NCBI RefSeq assembly: GCF_024502345.1
Contig: NZ_JALDNN010000001.1
Length of the DNA stretch: 64,000 nt
DNA from: Escherichia coli
GTDB taxonomy: Bacteria; Pseudomonadota; Gammaproteobacteria; Enterobacterales; Enterobacteriaceae
Reading direction: 5' to 3' (one strand)
The notes below the pieces were generated by a model. It was not told the DNA's origin. It ran no database searches and worked only from the letters and a program-made list of their open reading frames with translations. Made by a program: the position numbers and the translations under genes. Of the stretch, positions 11,542-22,963 are shown piece by piece (positions within the stretch are counted from its first letter, which is position 1; the number at the start of each line of letters is the position of its first letter).

Positions 11542-12219
11542 ATGAATACCAGAATTCTTTTTCCCCTGCTGTTCACTGTGGCATCATTCTCCGCCTCCGC
11601 CGGCAACTGGGCTGTCAAAAACGGCTGGTGTCAGACCATGACGGAAGATGGTCAGGCGCTGGTAATGCTGAAAAATGGCACGATTGGTATTACCGGCCTG
11701 ATGCAGGGATGCCCGAATAGCGTACAGACGCTCCTGGGCAACCGTATCAGTATTAACGGTAACCTGATCCCCACATCACAAATGTGTAATCAGCAGACAG
11801 GATTCAGGGCTGTTGAGGTGGAAGTCGGACAGGCGCCGGAAATGGTCAAAAAAGCCGTTCACTCCATAGCAGAGCGTGATGTGTCAGTTTTACAGGCATT
11901 TGGTGTACGAATGGAATTCACCCGCGGTGATATGCTGAAGGTCTGTCCGAAATTTGTCACATCACTTGCCGGTTTTTCCCCGAAACAGACACCCGCCATT
12001 AATAAAGATTCCGTCCTGCAGGCTGCCCGGCAGGCATACGCCCGGGAATATGACGAGGAAACAACAGAAACCGCTGATTTTGGCTCTTACGAAGTAAAAG
12101 GCAATAAGGTTGAGTTTGAAGTATTCAATCCTGAAGACCGTGCGTACGACAAAGTGACCGTCACGGTTGGTGCTGACGGTAATGCCACCGGCGCCAGCGT
12201 TGAATTTATCGGAAAATAG
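11542..12219 (+). CDS. Predicted secreted/periplasmic protein of unknown function
   Basis: 225-aa ORF with N-terminal signal peptide [20 protein letters not shown]; sits where CP4-type islands carry surface or lipoprotein genes. Confidence 0.5.
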
Positions 12220-12224
12220 CCGGT

Positions 12225-12458
12225 ATGTCGGACTGCCACCCTGTTTTATTGCCCGAAGGCCCTTTCTCACGCGAACAGGCGATGGCTGTCACAACAGCTT
12301 ACCACAATGTGCTTATTGAAGATGATCAGGGAACGCATTTCCGGCTGGTTATCCGCAATGCTGAAGGGCAGCTACGCTGGCGGTGCTGGAATTTTGAACC
12401 TGATGCCGGAAAACAGCTAAATCCGTATCTCGCCAGTGAGGGAATTCTCAGGCAATAA
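12225..12458 (+). CDS. DUF905-family protein (YkfF/YpjK-like)
   Basis: 77-aa [37 protein letters not shown]...WNFEPDAG matches the YkfF family. Confidence 0.7.
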
Positions 12459-12556
12459 ACGTCTTCATTTCATCCATCAGGCCACGTCTTCTCCGGGAGA
12501 CGTGGCTTTTTCATTTATTACACCAGTAAATCTTAATCACCAATAAGGAGCAAATC

Positions 12557-13375
12557 ATGCGATTAGCAAGTCGTTTTGGTTATGCGAACCAGATACGCCG
12601 TGACCGCCCCTTAACTCGCGAAGAACTGATGCAGGTCGTCCCCAGCGTATTCGGGGAAAATAAGCACACATCCAGAAGCGAGAACTATACCTGGATCCCC
12701 ACCATCACCGTGCTGGAAAGCCTGCAGCGGGAAGGCTTTCAGCCCTTCTTTGCCTGCCAGACCCGCGTACGTGACCCGGGCCGCCGGGGGTATACCAAAC
12801 ACATGCTGCGTCTGCGCCATGACGGGGAGATAAACGGACAACATGTCCCTGAAATCATCCTACTGAACTCCCATGACGGTACCTCCAGCTACCAGATGCT
12901 GCCGGGTTACTTCAGGTTCGTCTGCCAGAACGGCTGCGTCTGTGGTCAGTCTCTGGGGGAAGTGCGTGTTCCACACCGGGGAAATGTGGTGGACAGAGTC
13001 ATTGAAGGGGCTTACGAGGTGGTGGGCGTGTTTGACCGGATTGAGGAAAAGCGTGATGCCATGCAGTCGCTGGTCCTGCCGCCACCGGCACGCCAGGCGC
13101 TGGCACAGGCGGCGCTGACTTACCGTTATGGTGACGAACATCAGCCCGTCACCACCGCTGACATTCTGACACCACGACGCAGGGAGGATTACGGTAAGGA
13201 CCTGTGGAGTGCTTATCAGACCATCCAGGAGAATATGCTGAAAGGCGGGATTTCCGGGCGCAGCGCAAAAGGAAAACGTATCCATACCCGGGCCATTCAC
13301 AGCATCGGTACCGACATTAAGCTCAATCGCGCATTGTGGGTGATGGCAGAAACGCTGCTGGAGAGCATGCGCTGA
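12557..13375 (+). CDS. DUF932-family protein (YafZ/YfjQ-like)
   Basis: 272-aa ORF; size and position after DUF905 match YafZ/YfjQ of CP4-type islands. Confidence 0.65.
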   Translation: MRLASRFGYANQIRRDRPLTREELMQVVPSVFGENKHTSRSENYTWIPTITVLESLQREGFQPFFACQTRVRDPGRRGYTKHMLRLRHDGEINGQHVPEIILLNSHDGTSSYQMLPGYFRFVCQNGCVCGQSLGEVRVPHRGNVVDRVIEGAYEVVGVFDRIEEKRDAMQSLVLPPPARQALAQAALTYRYGDEHQPVTTADILTPRRREDYGKDLWSAYQTIQENMLKGGISGRSAKGKRIHTRAIHSIGTDIKLNRALWVMAETLLESMR

Positions 13376-13466
13376 TGCTGTTTCCCTGAAAGTACAGCCC
13401 TGACTCACGGCTGTACCAGTCTCCGGGCATTCTTCCATTCATTTACTTTTTATAAGGAATAACCTC

Positions 13467-13952
13467 ATGACAACCGTTTCGCATAATTCCACCACACCTT
13501 CTGTTTCCGTAACCGCTGCATCAGGGAATAACCCACCTCAGCTGGTTGCCACTCCCGTCCCTGATGAACAGTGCATCAGCTTCTGGCCGCAGCACTTTGG
13601 CCTCATTCCACAGTGGGTGACCCTGGAGCCCCGTATCTTCGGCTGGATGGACCGTCTGTGTGAAGACTACTGCGGTGGTATCTGGAATCTGTACACCCTG
13701 AACAACGGTGGGGCATTTATGGCACCCGAACCGGATGACGATGATGACGAAACATGGGTACTGTTCAATGCCATGAACGGTAACCGCGCTGAAATGAGTC
13801 CGGAAGCCGCCGGCATTGCTGCCTGTCTGATGACGTACAGTCATCATGCCTGTCGAACGGAGTGTTATGCCATGACGGTCCACTATTACCGGCTGCGGGA
13901 TTACGCCCTACAGCATCCGGAATGCAGCGCCATTATGCGCATCATCGACTGA
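13467..13952 (+). CDS. Antirestriction protein (KlcA/ArdB-like, YfjX/YafX family)
   Basis: 161-aa ORF; position and sequence resemble CP4 antirestriction proteins. Confidence 0.7.
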   Translation: MTTVSHNSTTPSVSVTAASGNNPPQLVATPVPDEQCISFWPQHFGLIPQWVTLEPRIFGWMDRLCEDYCGGIWNLYTLNNGGAFMAPEPDDDDDETWVLFNAMNGNRAEMSPEAAGIAACLMTYSHHACRTECYAMTVHYYRLRDYALQHPECSAIMRIID

Positions 13953-14444
13953 ATGGAGACAGGGACAATGCAGCAGCTTTCCTTTCTGCCCGGAGAGATG
14001 ACGCCCGGCGAGCGCAGTCTCATTCTGCGGGCCCTGAAAACCCTGGACCGCCATCTTCATGAACCCGGCGTGGCCTTCACCTCCACCCGTGCGGCACGGG
14101 AATGGCTGATTCTGAACATGGCGGGACTGGAGCGTGAAGAATTCCGGGTGCTGTATCTGAATAACCAGAATCAGCTGATTGCCGGTGAGACCCTCTTCAC
14201 AGGCACCATCAACCGCACGGAAGTCCATCCCCGGGAAGTGATTAAACGCGCCCTGTATCACAATGCCGCAGCCGTGGTGCTGGCACACAATCACCCGTCA
14301 GGTGAAGTCACACCCAGTAAGGCTGACCGCCTTATTACGGAACGTCTGGTACAGGCACTGGCCCTGGTGGATATCCGGGTGCCGGACCATCTGATAATCG
14401 GTGGCAGCCAGGTTTTCTCCTTTGCTGAACACGGTCTGCTTTAA
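13953..14444 (+). CDS. RadC-like JAB-domain protein (YeeS/YfjY/YkfG family)
   Basis: 163-aa ORF with JAMM-like motif HNHPSGEVTPSKAD. Confidence 0.8.
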   Translation: METGTMQQLSFLPGEMTPGERSLILRALKTLDRHLHEPGVAFTSTRAAREWLILNMAGLEREEFRVLYLNNQNQLIAGETLFTGTINRTEVHPREVIKRALYHNAAAVVLAHNHPSGEVTPSKADRLITERLVQALALVDIRVPDHLIIGGSQVFSFAEHGLL

Positions 14445-14512
14445 CCCGTCACCATCACAACCACATCACACTTGTTTTCACTTTTATCTTCTGTCTTCAG
14501 AGGTATCCCATC

Positions 14513-14734
14513 ATGAAAATTATCACCCGTGGTGAAGCCATGCGTATTCACCAACAGAATCCTGCATCCCGTCTTTTTCCGTTCTGTACCGGTAAGTACC
14601 GCTGGCACGGCAGTGCTGAAACGTATACCGGTCGTGAAGTGCAGGATATTCCCGGTGTGCTGGCCGTGTTTGCTGAACGCCGTAAGGACAGTTTTGGCCC
14701 GTATGTCCGGTTGATGAGCGTCACTCTGAACTGA
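14513..14734 (+). CDS. DUF987-family protein (YeeT/YpjJ-like)
   Basis: 73-aa ORF immediately upstream of the antitoxin, as in CP4-44 yeeT-yeeU. Confidence 0.7.
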   Translation: MKIITRGEAMRIHQQNPASRLFPFCTGKYRWHGSAETYTGREVQDIPGVLAVFAERRKDSFGPYVRLMSVTLN

Positions 14735-14752
14735 GTCAGAAAGGGGATTCTG

Positions 14753-15784
14753 ATGAGCAGCATTATCACCACCACAGTGTATACGCTGGATGAACTTTCC
14801 TGCCCTTCTGCACGGGAAAAAGCCCGCGACTGGTACCGTGTGCACCATTCTGACAGCAACTGGTATGAAAACGTGTACGAGGACTTCAGGGCGGTCTGTG
14901 GCATTTTCGGAATTGACCTCCGCCAGCGCGTTTTCCGGCTCAGCAACGGCAGGTTTATGGAAGAGCCGTGCATCTGGTTCAGCGGATTCTGCAGCCAGGG
15001 GGACGGAGCCTGTTTTGAAGGACGCTGGCACTGGCAGTCAGCAACAGCCAGGAGGCTCCGGGAGTATGCCACACAGGACCATGAACTCCATCGTATCGCG
15101 GATGCCCTGCAGGCGGTGCAGAAACGTAACTTCTGGCAACTGCAGGCTGAAATCCACCACCGGGGACGTTACTGCCATCCGTACAGCATGGATATCACTG
15201 TTACCCGGAACAGTCCGACTGGTCAGGCTATGACAGCCGATGCGGAAGCCGCTGTCAGCGAAGCCCTGCGCGACCTGGCCTTCTGGTTGTACCGTCAGCT
15301 GGAAAACGAGTACGACAGGCTGACCTCTGATGCCGCTGTTGATGAGGCCCTTCTCATCAACGAATACACCTTCACCGAAGCCGGTCTGCGCGCCGGCTTA
15401 CCTGAGGACTTTATCGTGTCAGACAAACTCCATGAGACAAATTATCCCGACGACCATAACGACCGCCTCTGGTGGGGACTGCTCTGCACCGTGACGCCCT
15501 GTTTCGGGGCACGTCTGGTGCAGGAGGGTAACCGGTTGCATTACCTTGTCGACCGCGCCGGCATCAGAGGCCTGTTCAGCGATGCAGATGCGTACCACCT
15601 GGACCAGGCCTTTCCGCTGCTGATGAAACAACTGGAGCTCATGCTCACCAGCGGTGAACTGAATCCCCGCCATCAGCATACCGTGACACTGTATGCGAAG
15701 GGGCTGACCTGTGAAGCCGACACCCTCGGCTCCTGTGGTTACGTTTATCTGGCTGTTTATCCGACGCCCGAAACGAAAAAGTAA
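14753..15784 (+). CDS. CbeA/YeeU/YfjZ-type antitoxin (core 15416-15784 from an internal GTG) read in frame with an upstream ~220-aa domain of unknown function
   Basis: C-terminal 122 aa (VSDKLHETNYPDDHNDRLWWGLLCTVTPCFGARLVQEGNRLHY...) match the CbeA antitoxin; there is no stop codon between the 14753 start and the antitoxin core. Confidence 0.6.
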   Translation: MSSIITTTVYTLDELSCPSAREKARDWYRVHHSDSNWYENVYEDFRAVCGIFGIDLRQRVFRLSNGRFMEEPCIWFSGFCSQGDGACFEGRWHWQSATARRLREYATQDHELHRIADALQAVQKRNFWQLQAEIHHRGRYCHPYSMDITVTRNSPTGQAMTADAEAAVSEALRDLAFWLYRQLENEYDRLTSDAAVDEALLINEYTFTEAGLRAGLPEDFIVSDKLHETNYPDDHNDRLWWGLLCTVTPCFGARLVQEGNRLHYLVDRAGIRGLFSDADAYHLDQAFPLLMKQLELMLTSGELNPRHQHTVTLYAKGLTCEADTLGSCGYVYLAVYPTPETKK

Positions 15785-15873
15785 CTCTCCAGAATAACCT
15801 TCTACTCCGGCCTGGTGCTTTCACCACGCCACTTTTCCATTTTTCATCTCTGCATATCAGGAAAATCTTCAGT

Positions 15874-16251
15874 ATGAAAACATTACCTGTATTACCCGGG
15901 CAGGCGGCCAGTTCACGCCCGTCTCCGGTTGAAATCTGGCAGACACTGCTCACCCGACTGCTGGATCAGCACTACGGCCTTACGCTGAATGACACACCGT
16001 TCGCTGATGAACGTGTGATTGAGCAGCATATTGAGGCAGGCATTTCACTGTGCGATGCGGTGAACTTTCTCGTTGAAAAATACGCACTGGTACGTACCGA
16101 CCAGCCGGGATTCAGCGCCTGTACCCGTTCTCAGTTAATAAACAGTATTGATATCCTCCGGGCACGCCGGGCAACCGGCCTGATGACACGCGACAACTAC
16201 AGAACGGTAAATAACATTACCCTGGGTAAACATCCGGGGGCGAAACAATGA
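15874..16251 (+). CDS. CbtA/YeeV/YkfI-family toxin (cytoskeleton-targeting type IV TA toxin)
   Basis: 125-aa ORF beginning MKTLPVLPGQAAS...; immediately downstream of the antitoxin. Confidence 0.8.
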   Translation: MKTLPVLPGQAASSRPSPVEIWQTLLTRLLDQHYGLTLNDTPFADERVIEQHIEAGISLCDAVNFLVEKYALVRTDQPGFSACTRSQLINSIDILRARRATGLMTRDNYRTVNNITLGKHPGAKQ

Positions 16252-16670
16252 AACTGGCCCTGACGCTGGAAGCCGACAGCATTAATGCGCAGGCGCTGAA
16301 CATGGGGCGCATTGTCGTTGACGTCGATGGTATTGAGCTCGCTGAACTGATTAACAAAGTCGCTGAAAACGGTTATTCACTCCGCGTGGTGGATGAACGT
16401 GACGCTACCGAAACACCGGCGACTTCTGCCAGCCCTCATCAGTTGCCGGAAGACAATACAGTGATACAGAGCGTGATGCCATTAACCACTGAAACAGCGC
16501 TGGATATCCTCATTGCGTGGCTGCAGGACAATATTGACTGCGAATCGGAAATTATCTTTGACAACAATGAGGACAAAACGGATTCGGCAGCACTGTTGCC
16601 CTGTATTGAACAGGCCAGGGAGGATATCCGTACCCTGCGCCAACTGCAGCTTCTGTACCAGAACCAGTGA
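16248..16670 (+). CDS. YeeW-like protein
   Basis: 140-aa acidic ORF overlapping the toxin stop by 4 bp, the position YeeW takes after yeeV. Confidence 0.55.
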   Translation: MKLALTLEADSINAQALNMGRIVVDVDGIELAELINKVAENGYSLRVVDERDATETPATSASPHQLPEDNTVIQSVMPLTTETALDILIAWLQDNIDCESEIIFDNNEDKTDSAALLPCIEQAREDIRTLRQLQLLYQNQ

Positions 16671-16754
16671 GTCTTACTCACCAGACTTCATTCCACTGAC
16701 GCCAGCCTGAACAGGGCTGGCGTTTTCATTTATCTGCAAAAAGGAATATCGATT

Positions 16755-17597
16755 ATGTCTGAAATCACAGCCCCCCGTCCGGAAGTGGTCAACGGGCATA
16801 CGGACGTTATCTGTTCAACCAGTATCCGCCACATTCTGGCTGTACGAAAGAGTACGCTGCTGCAAATCGACACACTTACCCGGCAACTGGCAGAAATCTC
16901 AGCAATGACAGAAAGTATTGGCGGTAAAACCGCACTGGACTGGGCGATGAAACAGGATTTTCGCTGTGGTTGCTGGCTGATGGAAAAACCTGAAACGGCA
17001 ATGAAAGCCATCACCCGCAATCTCGATCGCGAAATCTGGCGTGACCTGATGCAACGTTCCGGGATGCTGTCATTAATGGATGCGCAGGCCCGTGAGACAT
17101 GGTACCGGTCACTGGAGCACGATAATTTTCCGGAAATCAGTGAAGCGAACATTCTGAGCACATTTGAACAACTACACCAGAATAAGGATGAGGTGTTTGA
17201 GCGAGGGGTGATCAACGTCTTCAGGGGACTGAACTGGAATTACAAAACCAATTGCCCCTGCAAATTTGGCAGTAAAATTATCGTCAACAACCTAGTGAGG
17301 TGGGACCGGTGGGGGTTTCATCTTATCACCGGGCAACAGACTGACCGACTCGTCGACCTGGAAAGAATGCTACATCTGTTCAGCGGCAAACCGATCCCCG
17401 ACAACCGGGAAAACATCACTATTCGTCTGGATGGTCACATCCAGTCCGTTCAGGGTAAAGAGCGCTATGAAGACGAGATGTTCATCATTAAATACTTTAA
17501 GAAGGGATCTGCACACATCACTTTCAAAAGGCTGGAACTGATTGACAGAATTAACGATATAATAGCCAGGTACTTTCCTTCTGTACTCTCAGCCTGA
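16755..17597 (+). CDS. Hypothetical protein (conserved island-end protein, function unknown)
   Basis: 280-aa ORF with clean start context; last gene before IS1. Confidence 0.4.
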   Translation: MSEITAPRPEVVNGHTDVICSTSIRHILAVRKSTLLQIDTLTRQLAEISAMTESIGGKTALDWAMKQDFRCGCWLMEKPETAMKAITRNLDREIWRDLMQRSGMLSLMDAQARETWYRSLEHDNFPEISEANILSTFEQLHQNKDEVFERGVINVFRGLNWNYKTNCPCKFGSKIIVNNLVRWDRWGFHLITGQQTDRLVDLERMLHLFSGKPIPDNRENITIRLDGHIQSVQGKERYEDEMFIIKYFKKGSAHITFKRLELIDRINDIIARYFPSVLSA

Positions 17598-17876
17598 TCC
17601 CAAGTGTGATTCCCTTTCGATATCAAAAGGGACTGCGGGTATAATTGAGGGTACATTTTTAATCAAACCAAGTAAATTATATTAATATCAATATGATAAA
17701 AGAAATTTTCGATTCCGAGTCCGGCACCAAATTCATATAAACGGACCTCCACGGAGGTCCGTTTTTCGTTTCAGGACGCCACGATTTAAGCGTTCTGCCG
17801 CCAAATCAATTCTACCGAACTCAACCAGATTCTCCCCACATCACCAGCAATTTGCGGGCATGGTAATGACTCCAAC

Positions 17877-18380
17877 TTATTGATAGTGTTTTATGTTCAG
17901 ATAATGCCCGATGACTTTGTCATGCAGCTCCACCGATTTTGAGAACGACAGCGACTTCCGTCCCAGCCGTGCCAGGTGCTGCCTCAGATTCAGGTTATGC
18001 CGCTCAATTCGCTGCGTATATCGCTTGCTGATTACGTGCAGCTTTCCCTTCAGGCGGGATTCATACAGCGGCCAGCCATCCGTCATCCATATCACCACGT
18101 CAAAGGGTGACAGCAGGCTCATAAGACGCCCCAGCGTCGCCATAGTGCGTTCACCGAATACGTGCGCAACAACCGTCTTCCGGAGCCTGTCATACGCGTA
18201 AAACAGCCAGCGCTGGCGCGATTTAGCCCCGACGTATCCCCACTGTTCGTCCATTTCCGCGCAGACGATGACGTCACTGCCCGGCTGTATGCGCGAGGTT
18301 ACCGACTGCGGCCTGAGTTTTTTAAATGGCGGAAAATCGTGTTGAGGCCAACGCCCATAATGCGGGCGGTTGCCCGGCAT
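17877..18380 (-). CDS. insB: IS1 InsB (normally expressed as an InsAB' frameshift product)
   Basis: 167-aa ORF ending ...[15 protein letters not shown], with stop 15 nt from the IS end. Confidence 0.9.
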
Positions 18381-18574
18381 CCAACGCCATTCATGGCCAT
18401 ATCAATGATTTTCTGGTGCGTACCGGGTTGAGAAGCGGTGTAAGTGAACTGCAGTTGCCATGTTTTACGGCAGTGAGAGCAGAGATAGCGCTGATGTCCG
18501 GCGGTGCTTTTGCCGTTACGCACCACCCCGTCAGTAGCTGAACAGGAGGGACAGCTGATAGAAACAGAAGCCAC
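18299..18574 (-). CDS. insA: IS1 InsA
   Basis: 91-aa [46 protein letters not shown]... Confidence 0.9.
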
Positions 18575-18704
18575 TGGAGCACCTCAAAAACACCATCATA
18601 CACTAAATCAGTAAGTTGGCAGCATCACCAATCATTCTTACTCCCTTTGAATTACCCGCCTCATCAGAGATAATGCTTAAGAAATTTGTCACACAAGGAA
18701 GCTG

Positions 18705-20336
18705 ATGAGACATTCATTGCCCTACCGCATGTTACGCAAACGTCCGATGAAATTGAGTACCACTGTGATCTTAATGGTCAGCGCGGTACTGTTCTCGGTG
18801 CTATTGGTGGTGCATCTGATTTACTTCTCGCAAATCAGTGATATGACGCGAGACGGGCTAGCCAACAAGGCACTGGCAGTGGCGCGTACTCTCGCCGACT
18901 CGCCGGAAATCCGTCAGGGCTTGCAGAAAAAACCGCAGGAGAGTGGCATCCAGGCCATCGCGGAAGCCGTGCGCAAACGCAACGATCTGCTGTTTATTGT
19001 CGTTACCGATATGCAAAGTCTTCGCTACTCGCATCCTGAAGCCCAGCGTATTGGTCAGCCATTTAAAGGTGATGACATCCTTAAAGCGCTGAATGGCGAA
19101 GAAAATGTCGCTATCAATCGCGGTTTTCTGGCGCAAGCTTTACGCGTATTTACTCCCATCTACGATGAAAATCATAAACAAATTGGCGTGGTGGCGATCG
19201 GCCTTGAGTTAAGCCGCGTGACCCAACAGATCAATGACAGTCGCTGGAGCATTATCTGGTCAGTATTATTTGGCATGCTGGTCGGACTGATTGGCACCTG
19301 CATTCTGGTTAAAGTACTGAAAAAAATCCTTTTCGGCCTGGAACCCTACGAAATCTCCACGCTGTTTGAGCAACGCCAGGCCATGTTGCAGTCTATCAAA
19401 GAAGGCGTCGTTGCCGTGGACGATCGCGGCGAGGTCACGCTGATCAACGATGCCGCACAAGAATTGCTGAATTACCGTAAGTCGCAGGACGATGAGAAAC
19501 TGTCGACGCTCAGCCACTCATGGTCACAGGTGGTAGATGTCTCGGAAGTGTTACGCGACGGTACGCCGCGCCGCGACGAAGAGATTACGATTAAAGACCG
19601 GCTATTACTGATCAACACCGTTCCGGTGCGCAGTAATGGCGTTATCATCGGTGCCATTTCAACCTTCAGGGACAAAACTGAAGTTCGTAAACTGATGCAG
19701 CGACTCGACGGTCTGGTCAACTATGCTGATGCACTTCGTGAACGATCCCACGAATTTATGAATAAATTGCATGTGATTCTCGGATTATTGCATCTGAAGA
19801 GTTATAAGCAGTTGGAAGATTACATTCTCAAAACAGCCAATAACTATCAGGAAGAGATTGGCTCTATGCTGGGTAAGATCAAATCTCCGGTTATCGCTGG
19901 TTTTTTAATCAGCAAGATTAACCGCGCGACCGATTTAGGCCATACGCTGATTTTAAACAGTGAAAGCCAGCTGCCAGACAGCGGCAGTGAGGACCAGGTC
20001 GCGACGCTGATTACCACATTGGGAAATCTGATAGAAAACGCGCTGGAAGCATTAGGGCCGGAACCCGGTGGCGAAATTAGCGTAACATTGCACTACCGTC
20101 ACGGCTGGCTGCACTGCGAAGTTAACGATGATGGACCGGGGATCGCACCCGACAAAATCGATCACATTTTTGACAAAGGTGTCTCGACAAAAGGAAGCGA
20201 GCGAGGCGTCGGTTTAGCACTTGTCAAACAACAGGTAGAAAATCTCGGCGGCAGCATCGCCGTGGAATCGGAACCCGGGATTTTCACACAATTTTTTGTC
20301 CAGATACCCTGGGACGGGGAGAGGTCGAACAGATGA
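18705..20336 (+). CDS. dcuS: C4-dicarboxylate sensor histidine kinase DcuS
   Basis: 543-aa ORF recognised as DcuS; 4-bp overlap with dcuR. Confidence 0.95.
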   Translation: MRHSLPYRMLRKRPMKLSTTVILMVSAVLFSVLLVVHLIYFSQISDMTRDGLANKALAVARTLADSPEIRQGLQKKPQESGIQAIAEAVRKRNDLLFIVVTDMQSLRYSHPEAQRIGQPFKGDDILKALNGEENVAINRGFLAQALRVFTPIYDENHKQIGVVAIGLELSRVTQQINDSRWSIIWSVLFGMLVGLIGTCILVKVLKKILFGLEPYEISTLFEQRQAMLQSIKEGVVAVDDRGEVTLINDAAQELLNYRKSQDDEKLSTLSHSWSQVVDVSEVLRDGTPRRDEEITIKDRLLLINTVPVRSNGVIIGAISTFRDKTEVRKLMQRLDGLVNYADALRERSHEFMNKLHVILGLLHLKSYKQLEDYILKTANNYQEEIGSMLGKIKSPVIAGFLISKINRATDLGHTLILNSESQLPDSGSEDQVATLITTLGNLIENALEALGPEPGGEISVTLHYRHGWLHCEVNDDGPGIAPDKIDHIFDKGVSTKGSERGVGLALVKQQVENLGGSIAVESEPGIFTQFFVQIPWDGERSNR

Positions 20337-21052
20337 TCAATGTATTAATTATCGATGACGACGCAATGGTCGCGGAGCTGAATCGCCGATACGTAGCACA
20401 AATCCCAGGCTTTCAATGCTGTGGAACAGCCTCGACGCTGGAGAAAGCCAAAGAGATTATCTTCAATAGCGATACGCCTATCGACCTGATATTGCTCGAT
20501 ATCTATATGCAAAAAGAGAACGGGCTCGATTTACTGCCTGTCCTGCATAACGCGCGTTGCAAAAGTGATGTGATTGTCATCTCCTCCGCAGCCGATGCGG
20601 CAACCATTAAAGATTCGCTGCATTACGGTGTCGTGGATTACCTGATCAAACCCTTCCAGGCTTCCCGCTTTGAAGAGGCGCTCACCGGCTGGCGGCAAAA
20701 GAAAATGGCGCTGGAAAAACATCAGTATTATGACCAGGCCGAGCTTGATCAGTTAATCCACGGCAGCAGCTCCAACGAGCAGGATCCTCGTCGCTTGCCA
20801 AAAGGCTTAACGCCGCAGACGTTACGCACGCTGTGCCAGTGGATTGACGCGCATCAGGACTATGAGTTTTCAACCGACGAGCTGGCTAACGAGGTTAACA
20901 TCTCGCGTGTTTCCTGCCGTAAATACCTCATCTGGCTGGTCAACTGCCACATCTTGTTCACCAGTATCCATTATGGCGTCACGGGGCGTCCGGTTTACCG
21001 TTACCGTATTCAGGCAGAACACTACTCACTGCTGAAACAATATTGCCAATAA
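20333..21052 (+). CDS. dcuR: Response regulator DcuR
   Basis: 239-aa receiver + HTH protein, translationally coupled to dcuS. Confidence 0.95.
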   Translation: MINVLIIDDDAMVAELNRRYVAQIPGFQCCGTASTLEKAKEIIFNSDTPIDLILLDIYMQKENGLDLLPVLHNARCKSDVIVISSAADAATIKDSLHYGVVDYLIKPFQASRFEEALTGWRQKKMALEKHQYYDQAELDQLIHGSSSNEQDPRRLPKGLTPQTLRTLCQWIDAHQDYEFSTDELANEVNISRVSCRKYLIWLVNCHILFTSIHYGVTGRPVYRYRIQAEHYSLLKQYCQ

Positions 21053-21622
21053 CGGATCGCTGGTTATCTGTAAGTAATAATTATTACCGTAATGCAAAAT
21101 ATCCCTGGCACAAGTTACATCCTTCATCAGTAAAACTTGTGCCAGATCAAATATAATTATCCCTCCATCATCGTTAAAAATTAATATCTCTTCAGATGAA
21201 CGGTGTTTTTAATTTCAAAACGCTAACAAAAGTTAATTAACTATTATGTCACCCGCATTATGTGTATTTTTACCCACAAATGGGTAGATCAGATTAATCT
21301 TTAAACCTAATGATATCTGCCCTGAGAACAAAAAATAGACCGATAAATATCAATAAGATAACAGCAAACAAAACATTAACATCTGCGCAGTACAAACTAT
21401 AAACCCATCGCCAGAGAGTTTTTCTCTCTGAAAAAGCCGCTTATCACAGTGCATAAATTTGCCGCTGCTTTAATCAGCCAATATTTACTGTGAGGTATTT
21501 GCTAAAGCCGGTAACGACCAAACGGATATTTAGTCAGGCTCTGAAAACAGTTCATACAAAACAGAACGTGACTGTGATCTATTCAGCAAAAATTTAAATA
21601 GGATTATCGCGAGGGTTCACAC

Positions 21623-22963
21623 ATGTTATTTACTATCCAACTTATCATAATACTGATATGTCTGTTTTATGGTGCCAGAAAGGGTGGTATCGCGCTGGGT
21701 TTATTAGGCGGTATCGGTCTGGTCATTCTGGTCTTCGTCTTCCACCTTCAGCCAGGTAAACCACCGGTTGATGTCATGCTGGTTATCATTGCGGTGGTGG
21801 CGGCATCGGCGACCTTGCAAGCTTCGGGCGGTCTTGATGTCATGCTGCAAATTGCCGAGAAGTTGCTGCGCCGCAACCCGAAATATGTCTCAATTGTCGC
21901 GCCGTTTGTGACCTGTACGCTGACCATTCTTTGCGGTACGGGTCATGTGGTTTACACCATTCTGCCGATCATCTACGACGTCGCCATTAAGAACAACATC
22001 CGTCCGGAACGTCCGATGGCGGCAAGTTCTATCGGTGCACAGATGGGGATTATCGCCAGTCCGGTGTCGGTTGCGGTCGTGTCTCTGGTTGCAATGCTGG
22101 GTAATGTCACCTTTGATGGTCGCCATCTTGAGTTCCTCGACCTGCTGGCAATCACCATTCCATCGACGTTAATCGGTATCCTGGCGATCGGTATCTTCAG
22201 CTGGTTCCGCGGTAAAGATCTGGATAAAGACGAAGAGTTCCAGAAATTCATCTCAGTACCGGAAAACCGTGAGTATGTTTACGGTGATACCGCGACGCTG
22301 CTCGATAAAAAACTGCCGAAAAGCAACTGGCTGGCAATGTGGATTTTCCTCGGTGCAATCGCTGTAGTCGCACTTCTTGGTGCTGATTCGGACCTGCGTC
22401 CATCCTTCGGCGGCAAACCGCTGTCGATGGTACTGGTTATTCAGATGTTTATGCTGCTGACCGGGGCGCTGATTATTATCCTGACCAAAACCAATCCCGC
22501 GTCTATCTCAAAAAACGAAGTCTTCCGTTCCGGTATGATCGCCATCGTGGCGGTGTACGGTATCGCATGGATGGCAGAAACCATGTTCGGTGCGCATATG
22601 TCTGAAATTCAGGGCGTACTGGGTGAAATGGTGAAAGAGTATCCGTGGGCCTATGCCATTGTTCTGCTGCTGGTTTCCAAGTTTGTAAACTCTCAGGCTG
22701 CGGCGCTGGCGGCGATTGTTCCGGTCGCGCTGGCGATCGGCGTTGATCCGGCATACATCGTGGCTTCAGCACCGGCTTGCTACGGTTATTACATCCTGCC
22801 GACTTATCCGAGCGATCTGGCAGCGATTCAGTTTGACCGTTCCGGCACCACCCACATCGGTCGCTTCGTCATCAACCACAGTTTTATTCTGCCGGGGTTG
22901 ATTGGTGTGAGCGTATCGTGCGTCTTCGGCTGGATCTTCGCCGCGATGTACGGGTTCTTATAA
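21623..22963 (+). CDS. dcuB: Anaerobic C4-dicarboxylate transporter DcuB
   Basis: 446-aa polytopic membrane ORF downstream of dcuSR. Confidence 0.95.

Follow-up and report, generated by a model that had tools for sequence, protein, structure and literature searches.

Background

Toxin-antitoxin (TA) modules of the CbtA/CbeA kind (YeeV/YeeU in the CP4-44-type module, with the paralogous pairs YkfI/YafW and YpjF/YfjZ) lie in a series of genes in which an antirestriction gene, RadC, DUF987, the antitoxin, the toxin and YeeW follow one another. As summarised in PMC5371832 (citing Masuda et al. 2012), YeeU/CbeA counters CbtA without binding the toxin, by helping FtsZ and MreB to form bundles. The same paper describes co-transcription of upstream genes with the TA pair, and in the CbeA/CbtA-type modules of K-12 those upstream genes of the operon that were assayed fail to neutralise the toxin (PMC5371832).

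A second protein family of relevance here is DUF8835 (e.g. WP_000086752 from ST131; phrog_5162), the members of which are encoded by stand-alone genes with a stop codon of their own. To our knowledge, no DUF8835 gene is present in Escherichia coli K-12. Reading frames that give rise to a long and a short product by in-frame internal initiation are well known from infB (IF2 alpha/beta), clpB and cheA (long and short form).

In this paper we examine a TA locus in a stretch of 64,000 nucleotides of E. coli (contig NZ_JALDNN010000001.1 of assembly GCF_024502345.1), in the following referred to as the window. A preliminary description of this DNA had reported that the frame of a CbeA-type antitoxin is open back to ATG 14753, right after a DUF987 gene, and had offered three readings: an N-terminally extended fusion antitoxin, an upstream gene that has lost its stop codon, or an antitoxin that starts from an internal GTG. 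The open frame holds true, as a single ORF of 343 codons. With a probability of about 0.79, we regard the locus as an ordinary 215-codon island gene that has lost its stop, i.e. as a recent, lineage-specific read-through allele produced by neutral stop loss rather than an evolved fusion antitoxin.

Results and discussion

Organization of the locus

The gene order of the window (Table 1) is that of the CP4-44-type module. Its antitoxin matches YeeU and PF06154, its toxin gene is intact, and the antitoxin has the same GTG and Shine-Dalgarno sequence as in alleles where it forms a separate gene. It differs from the CP4-44-type module in an extra DUF8835 gene between DUF987 and the antitoxin, and in that the antitoxin ORF is at the same time the C-terminal part of the 343-codon ORF. 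The locus is thus no new kind of system, being a type IV CbtA/CbeA TA module in a CP4-44-like island with a common additional DUF8835 gene; the stop-loss allele is its sole peculiarity, and one that RefSeq already recognises as a pseudogene plus YeeU.

The fused ORF is separated by 18 nt from the 73-aa DUF987 gene on its 5' side and by 89 nt from the CbtA-type toxin gene on its 3' side. The 18-nt spacer (14735-14752), which holds the Shine-Dalgarno-like sequence of the DUF8835 frame, is identical to that of the closest stop-bearing allele (L014, see below). The DUF987 gene lies upstream of the fused ORF in the same transcription unit. On the + strand, no strong terminator-like site was found between 12508 and 16698, and no sigma-70-like promoter match within the fused ORF or in the gap that separates this ORF from the toxin gene.

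Table 1. Features of the CbtA/CbeA locus in the window (positions refer to the 64,000-nt stretch)
Feature	Position	Strand	Basis or remark
DUF987 (YeeT-like) gene, 73 aa	14513..14734	+	ORF; PGAP 'DUF987 domain-containing protein' at identical locus; phrog_14887 match
Shine-Dalgarno-like AGGGGA, 5 nt 5' of ATG 14753, serving the DUF8835 frame	14742..14747	+	sequence
Fused ORF, 343 aa, ATG start, TAA stop 15782-15784	14753..15784	+	ORF listing
DUF8835 gene body, codons 1-215	14753..15397	+	separate CDS in L002-L005; homologue clusters; AlphaFold2; dN/dS
Former stop codon, now TTA (Leu216); T at 15399 in place of the ancestral G of TGA	15398..15400	+	alignments A1, A2; base-by-base comparison with L014
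15-nt spacer formerly between the genes, now read as 5 in-frame codons (PEDFI)	15401..15415	+	alignment A1; sequence
YeeU/CbeA-family type IV antitoxin gene, 122 aa from GTG, TAA stop 15782-15784	15416..15784	+	PF06154; YeeU 2H28; PGAP CDS WP_032216526.1
CbtA-family toxin gene, 125 aa, intact	15874..16251	+	ORF; PGAP 'type IV toxin-antitoxin system cytoskeleton-binding toxin CbtA', WP_000854821.1
Second in-frame ORF fusion, first ~59 codons of DUF5983 (YeeW) + DUF957	16248..16670	+	Nissle 1917 comparison; PGAP
Terminator-like hairpin closing the transcription unit	16698..16724	+	previous equally strong stem on the + strand at 12479-12508

Loss of the stop codon and origin of the fused reading frame

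The comparison with homologous islands, which had been proposed as a check, revealed that the upstream gene normally ends with a TGA of its own before the antitoxin gene. In four inspected loci, ST131 O25b:H4 (L002), GF60 (L003), Nissle 1917 (L004) and WCHEC025943 (L005), the upstream part stands as a CDS by itself between the DUF987 and YeeU genes, closed by a stop of its own and encoding 214 aa (227 aa in L005). The upstream ORF is therefore a separate known gene, the stop of which normally lies exactly at 15398-15400; this is essentially the finding that the preliminary description had named as refuting its proposal. In the alignment, the junction of ST131 reads GCC GGC TGA CC TGAGGACTTTATC GTG and that of the window GCC GGC TTA CCT GAG GAC TTT ATC GTG. 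Among the retrieved alleles that retain the stop, the closest is L014, which encodes the 215-aa protein P0018 and runs colinear with the window along the entire 1,032 nt. In the upstream gene the two differ at three positions, one of them 15399. Both L014 and ST131 have GGC TGA CCT GAG GAC TTT ATC GTG where the window has GGC TTA at the same place, so that a change of G to T at 15399 turns the TGA stop into a leucine codon. The comparison thus bears out the second reading, in which the stop codon of an upstream gene was lost.

In the window and in ST131 the spacer is 15 nt long, in frame with the GTG and free of stops, and translation consequently continues into the antitoxin gene once the stop is lost. 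The common alleles L003-L005 possess a spacer of 49 nt, i.e. 34 nt longer, with an in-frame TGA behind the first stop. Because the long spacer holds this back-up stop, the fusion needed two events, a spacer deletion and then the stop loss. Both can be read from the sequence comparisons: a 34-nt deletion first shortened the spacer from 49 to 15 nt, removing the back-up TGA and bringing the DUF8835 and YeeU genes into one frame, and the substitution at 15399 then converted the DUF8835 stop from TGA to TTA. The locus thus offers a clean case of adjacent genes becoming one ORF by deletion in the spacer followed by a point mutation in the stop codon, although its import for biology at large is small.

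Mutations of this stop are not confined to the window. In L005 (NZ_CP027205.2, 2143-2184) the same stop is lost (TGC); since the long spacer with its in-frame TGA is retained there, the product (P0022, 227 aa) ends 13 codons later, with a 13-residue tail and without fusion. Proteins of this 227-aa type form a cluster of 501 member sequences, and together with the loss in L005 this indicates that the DUF8835 stop has mutated repeatedly and that short C-terminal extensions persist. Within the short-spacer lineage, P0013 (L006) carries TGC (Cys) at the former stop, an independent stop loss, and P0015 (L007) carries TTA on a different background of the upstream gene. Judged from these alleles, the full-length fusion arose at least twice, with TTA and with TGC.

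A TGA followed by C is a weak termination context in E. coli. As the stop of the short-spacer alleles is a TGA followed by C, low-level read-through is possible in them, and it can be imagined that the approximately 430 records with an in-frame 15-nt spacer already produce some fusion protein in this way, so that a fusion that is biologically used would merely have become constitutive in the alleles with TTA and TGC. If true, the fusion would tether an uncharacterised protein of conjugative elements to a cytoskeleton-binding antitoxin and alter the neutralisation of CbtA; we see only a slim chance of this.

The antitoxin part and the toxin gene

The only Pfam match of the fused ORF is CbeA_antitoxin (PF06154), at residues 240-338 with an E-value of 3e-52. 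The stretch translated from GTG 15416 aligns with its residues 1-121 to residues 1-121 of the crystallised E. coli YeeU 2H28 (E 9e-72) and also matches the solved structures 2INW, 2JN7 and 2EA9. GTG 15416 is accordingly the canonical antitoxin start, because its product matches 2H28 from residue 1 to residue 1. The 122-aa antitoxin core of the preliminary description is thus correct, whereas the upstream extension, given there as 220 aa, amounts to 221 codons before the GTG, namely the 215 codons of 14753-15397, the former stop TTA and five codons of the former spacer. As expected for a member of the CbeA family, the antitoxin lies directly 5' of a CbtA-family toxin gene, in one transcription unit with it.

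The signals for independent translation of the antitoxin are preserved. Its Shine-Dalgarno sequence GAGGA (15404-15408) lies 7 nt 5' of the GTG, inside the former spacer, and the whole GAGGA-N7-GTG element (15404-15418) is unchanged relative to alleles with YeeU as a separate gene, while the frame is also open for 221 codons upstream. The third reading, a start of the antitoxin at the internal GTG, is hence probably right, as the initiation site agrees with that of the separate-gene alleles and the product matches crystallised YeeU from its first residue. RNA folding around the junction was indistinguishable from that of shuffled sequence (z -0.93), and a scan of 12000-18800 against Rfam returned no RNA family.

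Two products can thus be envisaged. Ribosomes that start at ATG 14753 would make a two-domain polypeptide consisting of the DUF8835 fold, a flexible linker of about 30 residues and the YeeU fold. In an AlphaFold2 model of the fusion the N-terminal domain is still predicted with high confidence and residues 219-249 fall below pLDDT 50, consistent with a flexible linker made up of the old spacer and the N-terminal tail of YeeU. The internal GTG, its initiation site being unchanged, probably still yields the ordinary 122-aa YeeU, perhaps at a lower rate because elongating ribosomes cross the internal site. This YeeU would counter CbtA in the type IV manner, acting on FtsZ and MreB filaments and not on the toxin. 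The arrangement is analogous to infB, clpB and cheA in that a Shine-Dalgarno sequence and a start codon are kept within a longer ORF, which would yield a full-length and a C-terminal product. Those cases, however, are conserved and functional, whereas the window presents what looks like a recent stop-loss accident with two predicted products.

The upstream DUF8835 family

Residues 1-215 of the window's ORF correspond to a full-length member of DUF8835. It shares 90-99% identity with members from E. coli and about 60% with those from Salmonella, Klebsiella and alphaproteobacteria. The family is large: an exhaustive search gave homologues in 3,207 clusters at 50% identity, and among the 150 listed nearly all are 200-225 aa long; the sole long member among the matches listed (P0138, 374 aa) has no CbeA-like C-terminus. 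The ratio dN/dS is 0.16-0.45 against other E. coli alleles and 0.16 against a Klebsiella member, and DUF8835 is on these comparisons a genuine protein-coding family under purifying selection. An alignment of 61 sequences displays the conserved motif FSGFxSQGDGACFEG together with E14, Q82, D84, D109, Y140, H142 and N203, and near the C-terminal end F207 and G211 do not vary. Among the conserved residues, the polar cluster Q82/D84/D109/Y140/H142 points to a putative active or binding site. The copy in the window shows the full-length homology and the motif, but instead of ending just past G211, as stand-alone members do, its ORF runs on for 128 codons beyond the mutated stop.

Attempts to connect the family to proteins of known function gave little. 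A domain search of the upstream residues, likewise proposed in the preliminary description, was unproductive, no family in the local Pfam-A library being found for residues 1-215 with either the single sequence or the 61 aligned homologues. NCBIfam and PADLOC gave no match for the upstream part, and in PHROGs it matches only families of unknown function, including phrog_5162. The AlphaFold2 model of the DUF8835 part is nonetheless confident (pLDDT 96.5, pTM 0.89) and superimposes on AFDB members with a TM-score of 0.97. Foldseek searches of AFDB50 with this model recovered only family members with the same propagated name, those of the PDB no match at E <= 0.001, and sequence searches of the PDB with residues 1-215, as a single sequence and as a profile, nothing below E of about 1. 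A literature search on 'DUF8835' and on the product name found no experimental paper on the family.

NCBI names the upstream gene 'antitoxin of toxin-antitoxin stability system' or, in recent PGAP runs, DUF8835. The former name appears to be unfounded and carried over from neighbouring genes. In Tistrella and Methylosinus, DUF8835 occurs in regions resembling integrative and conjugative elements (ICEs), with genes for ParB_N, DUF736, DUF2958 and a relaxase/coupling protein or helicase/Toprim, and in neither of these two alphaproteobacterial contexts is it accompanied by a CbeA/CbtA pair; in Klebsiella michiganensis it stands between CbeA and CbtA, an order unlike that of E. coli (loci of the family: L008, L009, L010 and L011). 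Our best guess from context is that DUF8835 is a putative accessory gene of integrative and conjugative elements, of an establishment or anti-defence type. Being widespread in Proteobacteria and typical of ICE regions, under purifying selection and with a confidently predicted fold that has no solved relative, the family is the more interesting by-product of the present analysis.

The conservation of its C-terminal end bears on the fate of the upstream frame. PGAP annotates 14753-15397, in every identical genome that was inspected, as a pseudogene 'antitoxin of toxin-antitoxin stability system; incomplete; missing C-terminus', followed in the same frame by an intact 'type IV toxin-antitoxin system YeeU family antitoxin' from the GTG. 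On the RefSeq/PGAP view the upstream frame is dead and the 122-aa antitoxin is the sole functional product, with the long form misfolded or degraded or the DUF8835 function lost. Indeed, with F207 and G211 invariant among the last residues of the family, an appendage of 128 residues at the C-terminus might interfere. Nevertheless, the upstream frame keeps its ATG, its Shine-Dalgarno sequence and the full run of 215 codons intact, with only two further differences from the stop-bearing allele. Testing 14753-15397 for pseudogene lesions revealed no frameshift, premature stop or truncation, the sole lesion being the stop loss. The N-terminal domain is modelled inside the fusion with unchanged high confidence, and a C-terminal extension of 13 residues persists in the 501-member cluster. 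We therefore hold a dead upstream frame to be unlikely.

Opposite the DUF987 and DUF8835 genes, and overlapping them, the - strand has two long ORFs of 196 aa (14441-15031) and 174 aa (14548-15072), which are most likely mechanical by-products of the coding strand.

Frequency and distribution of the allele

Of 5,426 complete E. coli genomes, 2,045 (~38%) contain DNA with homology to the upstream part. The exact 61-nt junction of the window was found in 24 complete-genome records, which come from several countries and from sources such as chicken, duck, pig, cat, dog, cattle, humans and surface water. A further ~430 records share the 15-nt spacer and have one mismatch to the window junction; among the matches listed (36 of ~430), 34 are annotated as separate 'hypothetical protein' and cbeA genes. 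Going by these records, the fusion allele is rare and derived within E. coli.

That the fused frame could be an error of sequencing or assembly, with a real stop or frameshift lying between the genes, had been raised in the preliminary description. It is contradicted by the identical junction in the 24 independent records from different laboratories, hosts and countries, and by the recurrence of the 343-aa protein in many independent assemblies (NCBI, ENA, Logan). We give such an error next to no credence. In addition, a region of 1.9 kb is 100% identical to several complete E. coli chromosomes.

The allele occupies two chromosomal sites, one beside cadC and one beside yghD/gsp, which we take to be the pheU and pheV neighbourhoods. 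The module with both of its ORF fusions (for the second see below) was observed in L015 (NZ_CP025048.1) on the one hand and in L001 and L016 on the other, at the two different sites. The presence of one module at two sites implies transfer or recombination between sites or strains.

An alternative is an adaptive explanation, in which a DUF8835 tether would alter the manner, place or timing of the action against CbtA, or would link the DUF8835 activity to the cytoskeleton, and the stop loss would have been selected. Within the short-spacer lineage, this one codon has lost its stop at least twice (TTA and TGC), and TTA occurs with two backgrounds of the upstream gene and at both chromosomal sites. 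This repeated loss at one codon counts against a neutral reading, and positive selection for the fusion could give the same pattern of recurrence as drift. Moreover, DUF8835 neighbours CbeA/CbtA in E. coli as well as in Klebsiella, with a gene order that differs between the two, and the predicted linker is long and flexible, so that both domains could fold. Yet the protein search recovered fusions of 343 or 342 aa only at >=94% identity to the query, all of them from E. coli, and the fused architecture was not found across diverged homologues; an evolved fusion antitoxin, in an upstream family that otherwise stands alone, thus finds no support. The exact junction is present in 24 of ~454 short-spacer records and absent from the other ~1,500 genomes that bear the gene. 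The same stop was also lost in the 227-aa type represented by L005, where no fusion results, which points to mutation and drift. Furthermore, DUF8835 is widespread without CbeA/CbtA, the CbeA/CbtA pairs of K-12 work without DUF8835 (PMC5371832), and a neighbouring gene pair in the same operon has been joined by an obviously degenerative deletion. Taken together, selection for a two-domain antitoxin seems very unlikely to us. Most likely the stop loss reflects drift, either neutral or mildly deleterious, within an integrative island in decay and introduces no new mechanism of neutralisation. The fused ORF carries no secondary disabling mutation, and the allele is too young for such mutations to be expected. 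For annotation, the consequence is that one should not present the 343-aa ORF as a fusion antitoxin of a new kind.

Other fusions involving these genes were encountered as well. In P0017 (280 aa) an internal deletion joins a truncated DUF8835 through the long spacer to YeeU, P0016 (283 aa) reflects an internal tandem duplication of the DUF8835 gene, and P0036 (285 aa) is a fusion of antirestriction protein and DUF8835. All three are sporadic products of rearrangement in single assemblies. Such sporadic, shallow fusion events look like mutational noise in a rearranging island and not like a conserved architecture, as far as the sequences tell.

Island context and decay

A second in-frame fusion, of DUF5983 and DUF957, lies 460 nt downstream of the DUF8835-YeeU fusion, and the two travel together. 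Relative to Nissle 1917, in which DUF5983 and DUF957 are separate (162 aa and 65 aa), the join involves two gaps of together about 280 nt; in the identical genomes PGAP annotates a DUF5983 pseudogene plus DUF957.

The surroundings of the island are rearranged too. Between the end of the island and dcuS, and adjoining both, lies an IS1 copy (about 17861-18628), beyond which dcuS, dcuR and dcuB follow at 18705-22963. In H1 and H3, where an identical island occupies this site, an integrase remnant and cadC-cadB come next instead of IS1 and dcuS, and the missing cad region at this position of the window suggests an IS1-associated deletion. In Shigella and EIEC, loss of cad counts as a classic pathoadaptive change. 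Fragments of IS21-family and IS2-type transposases are located upstream of the island genes, at 1752-2426 and 3646-4125, consistent with an island that is riddled with IS elements and decaying.
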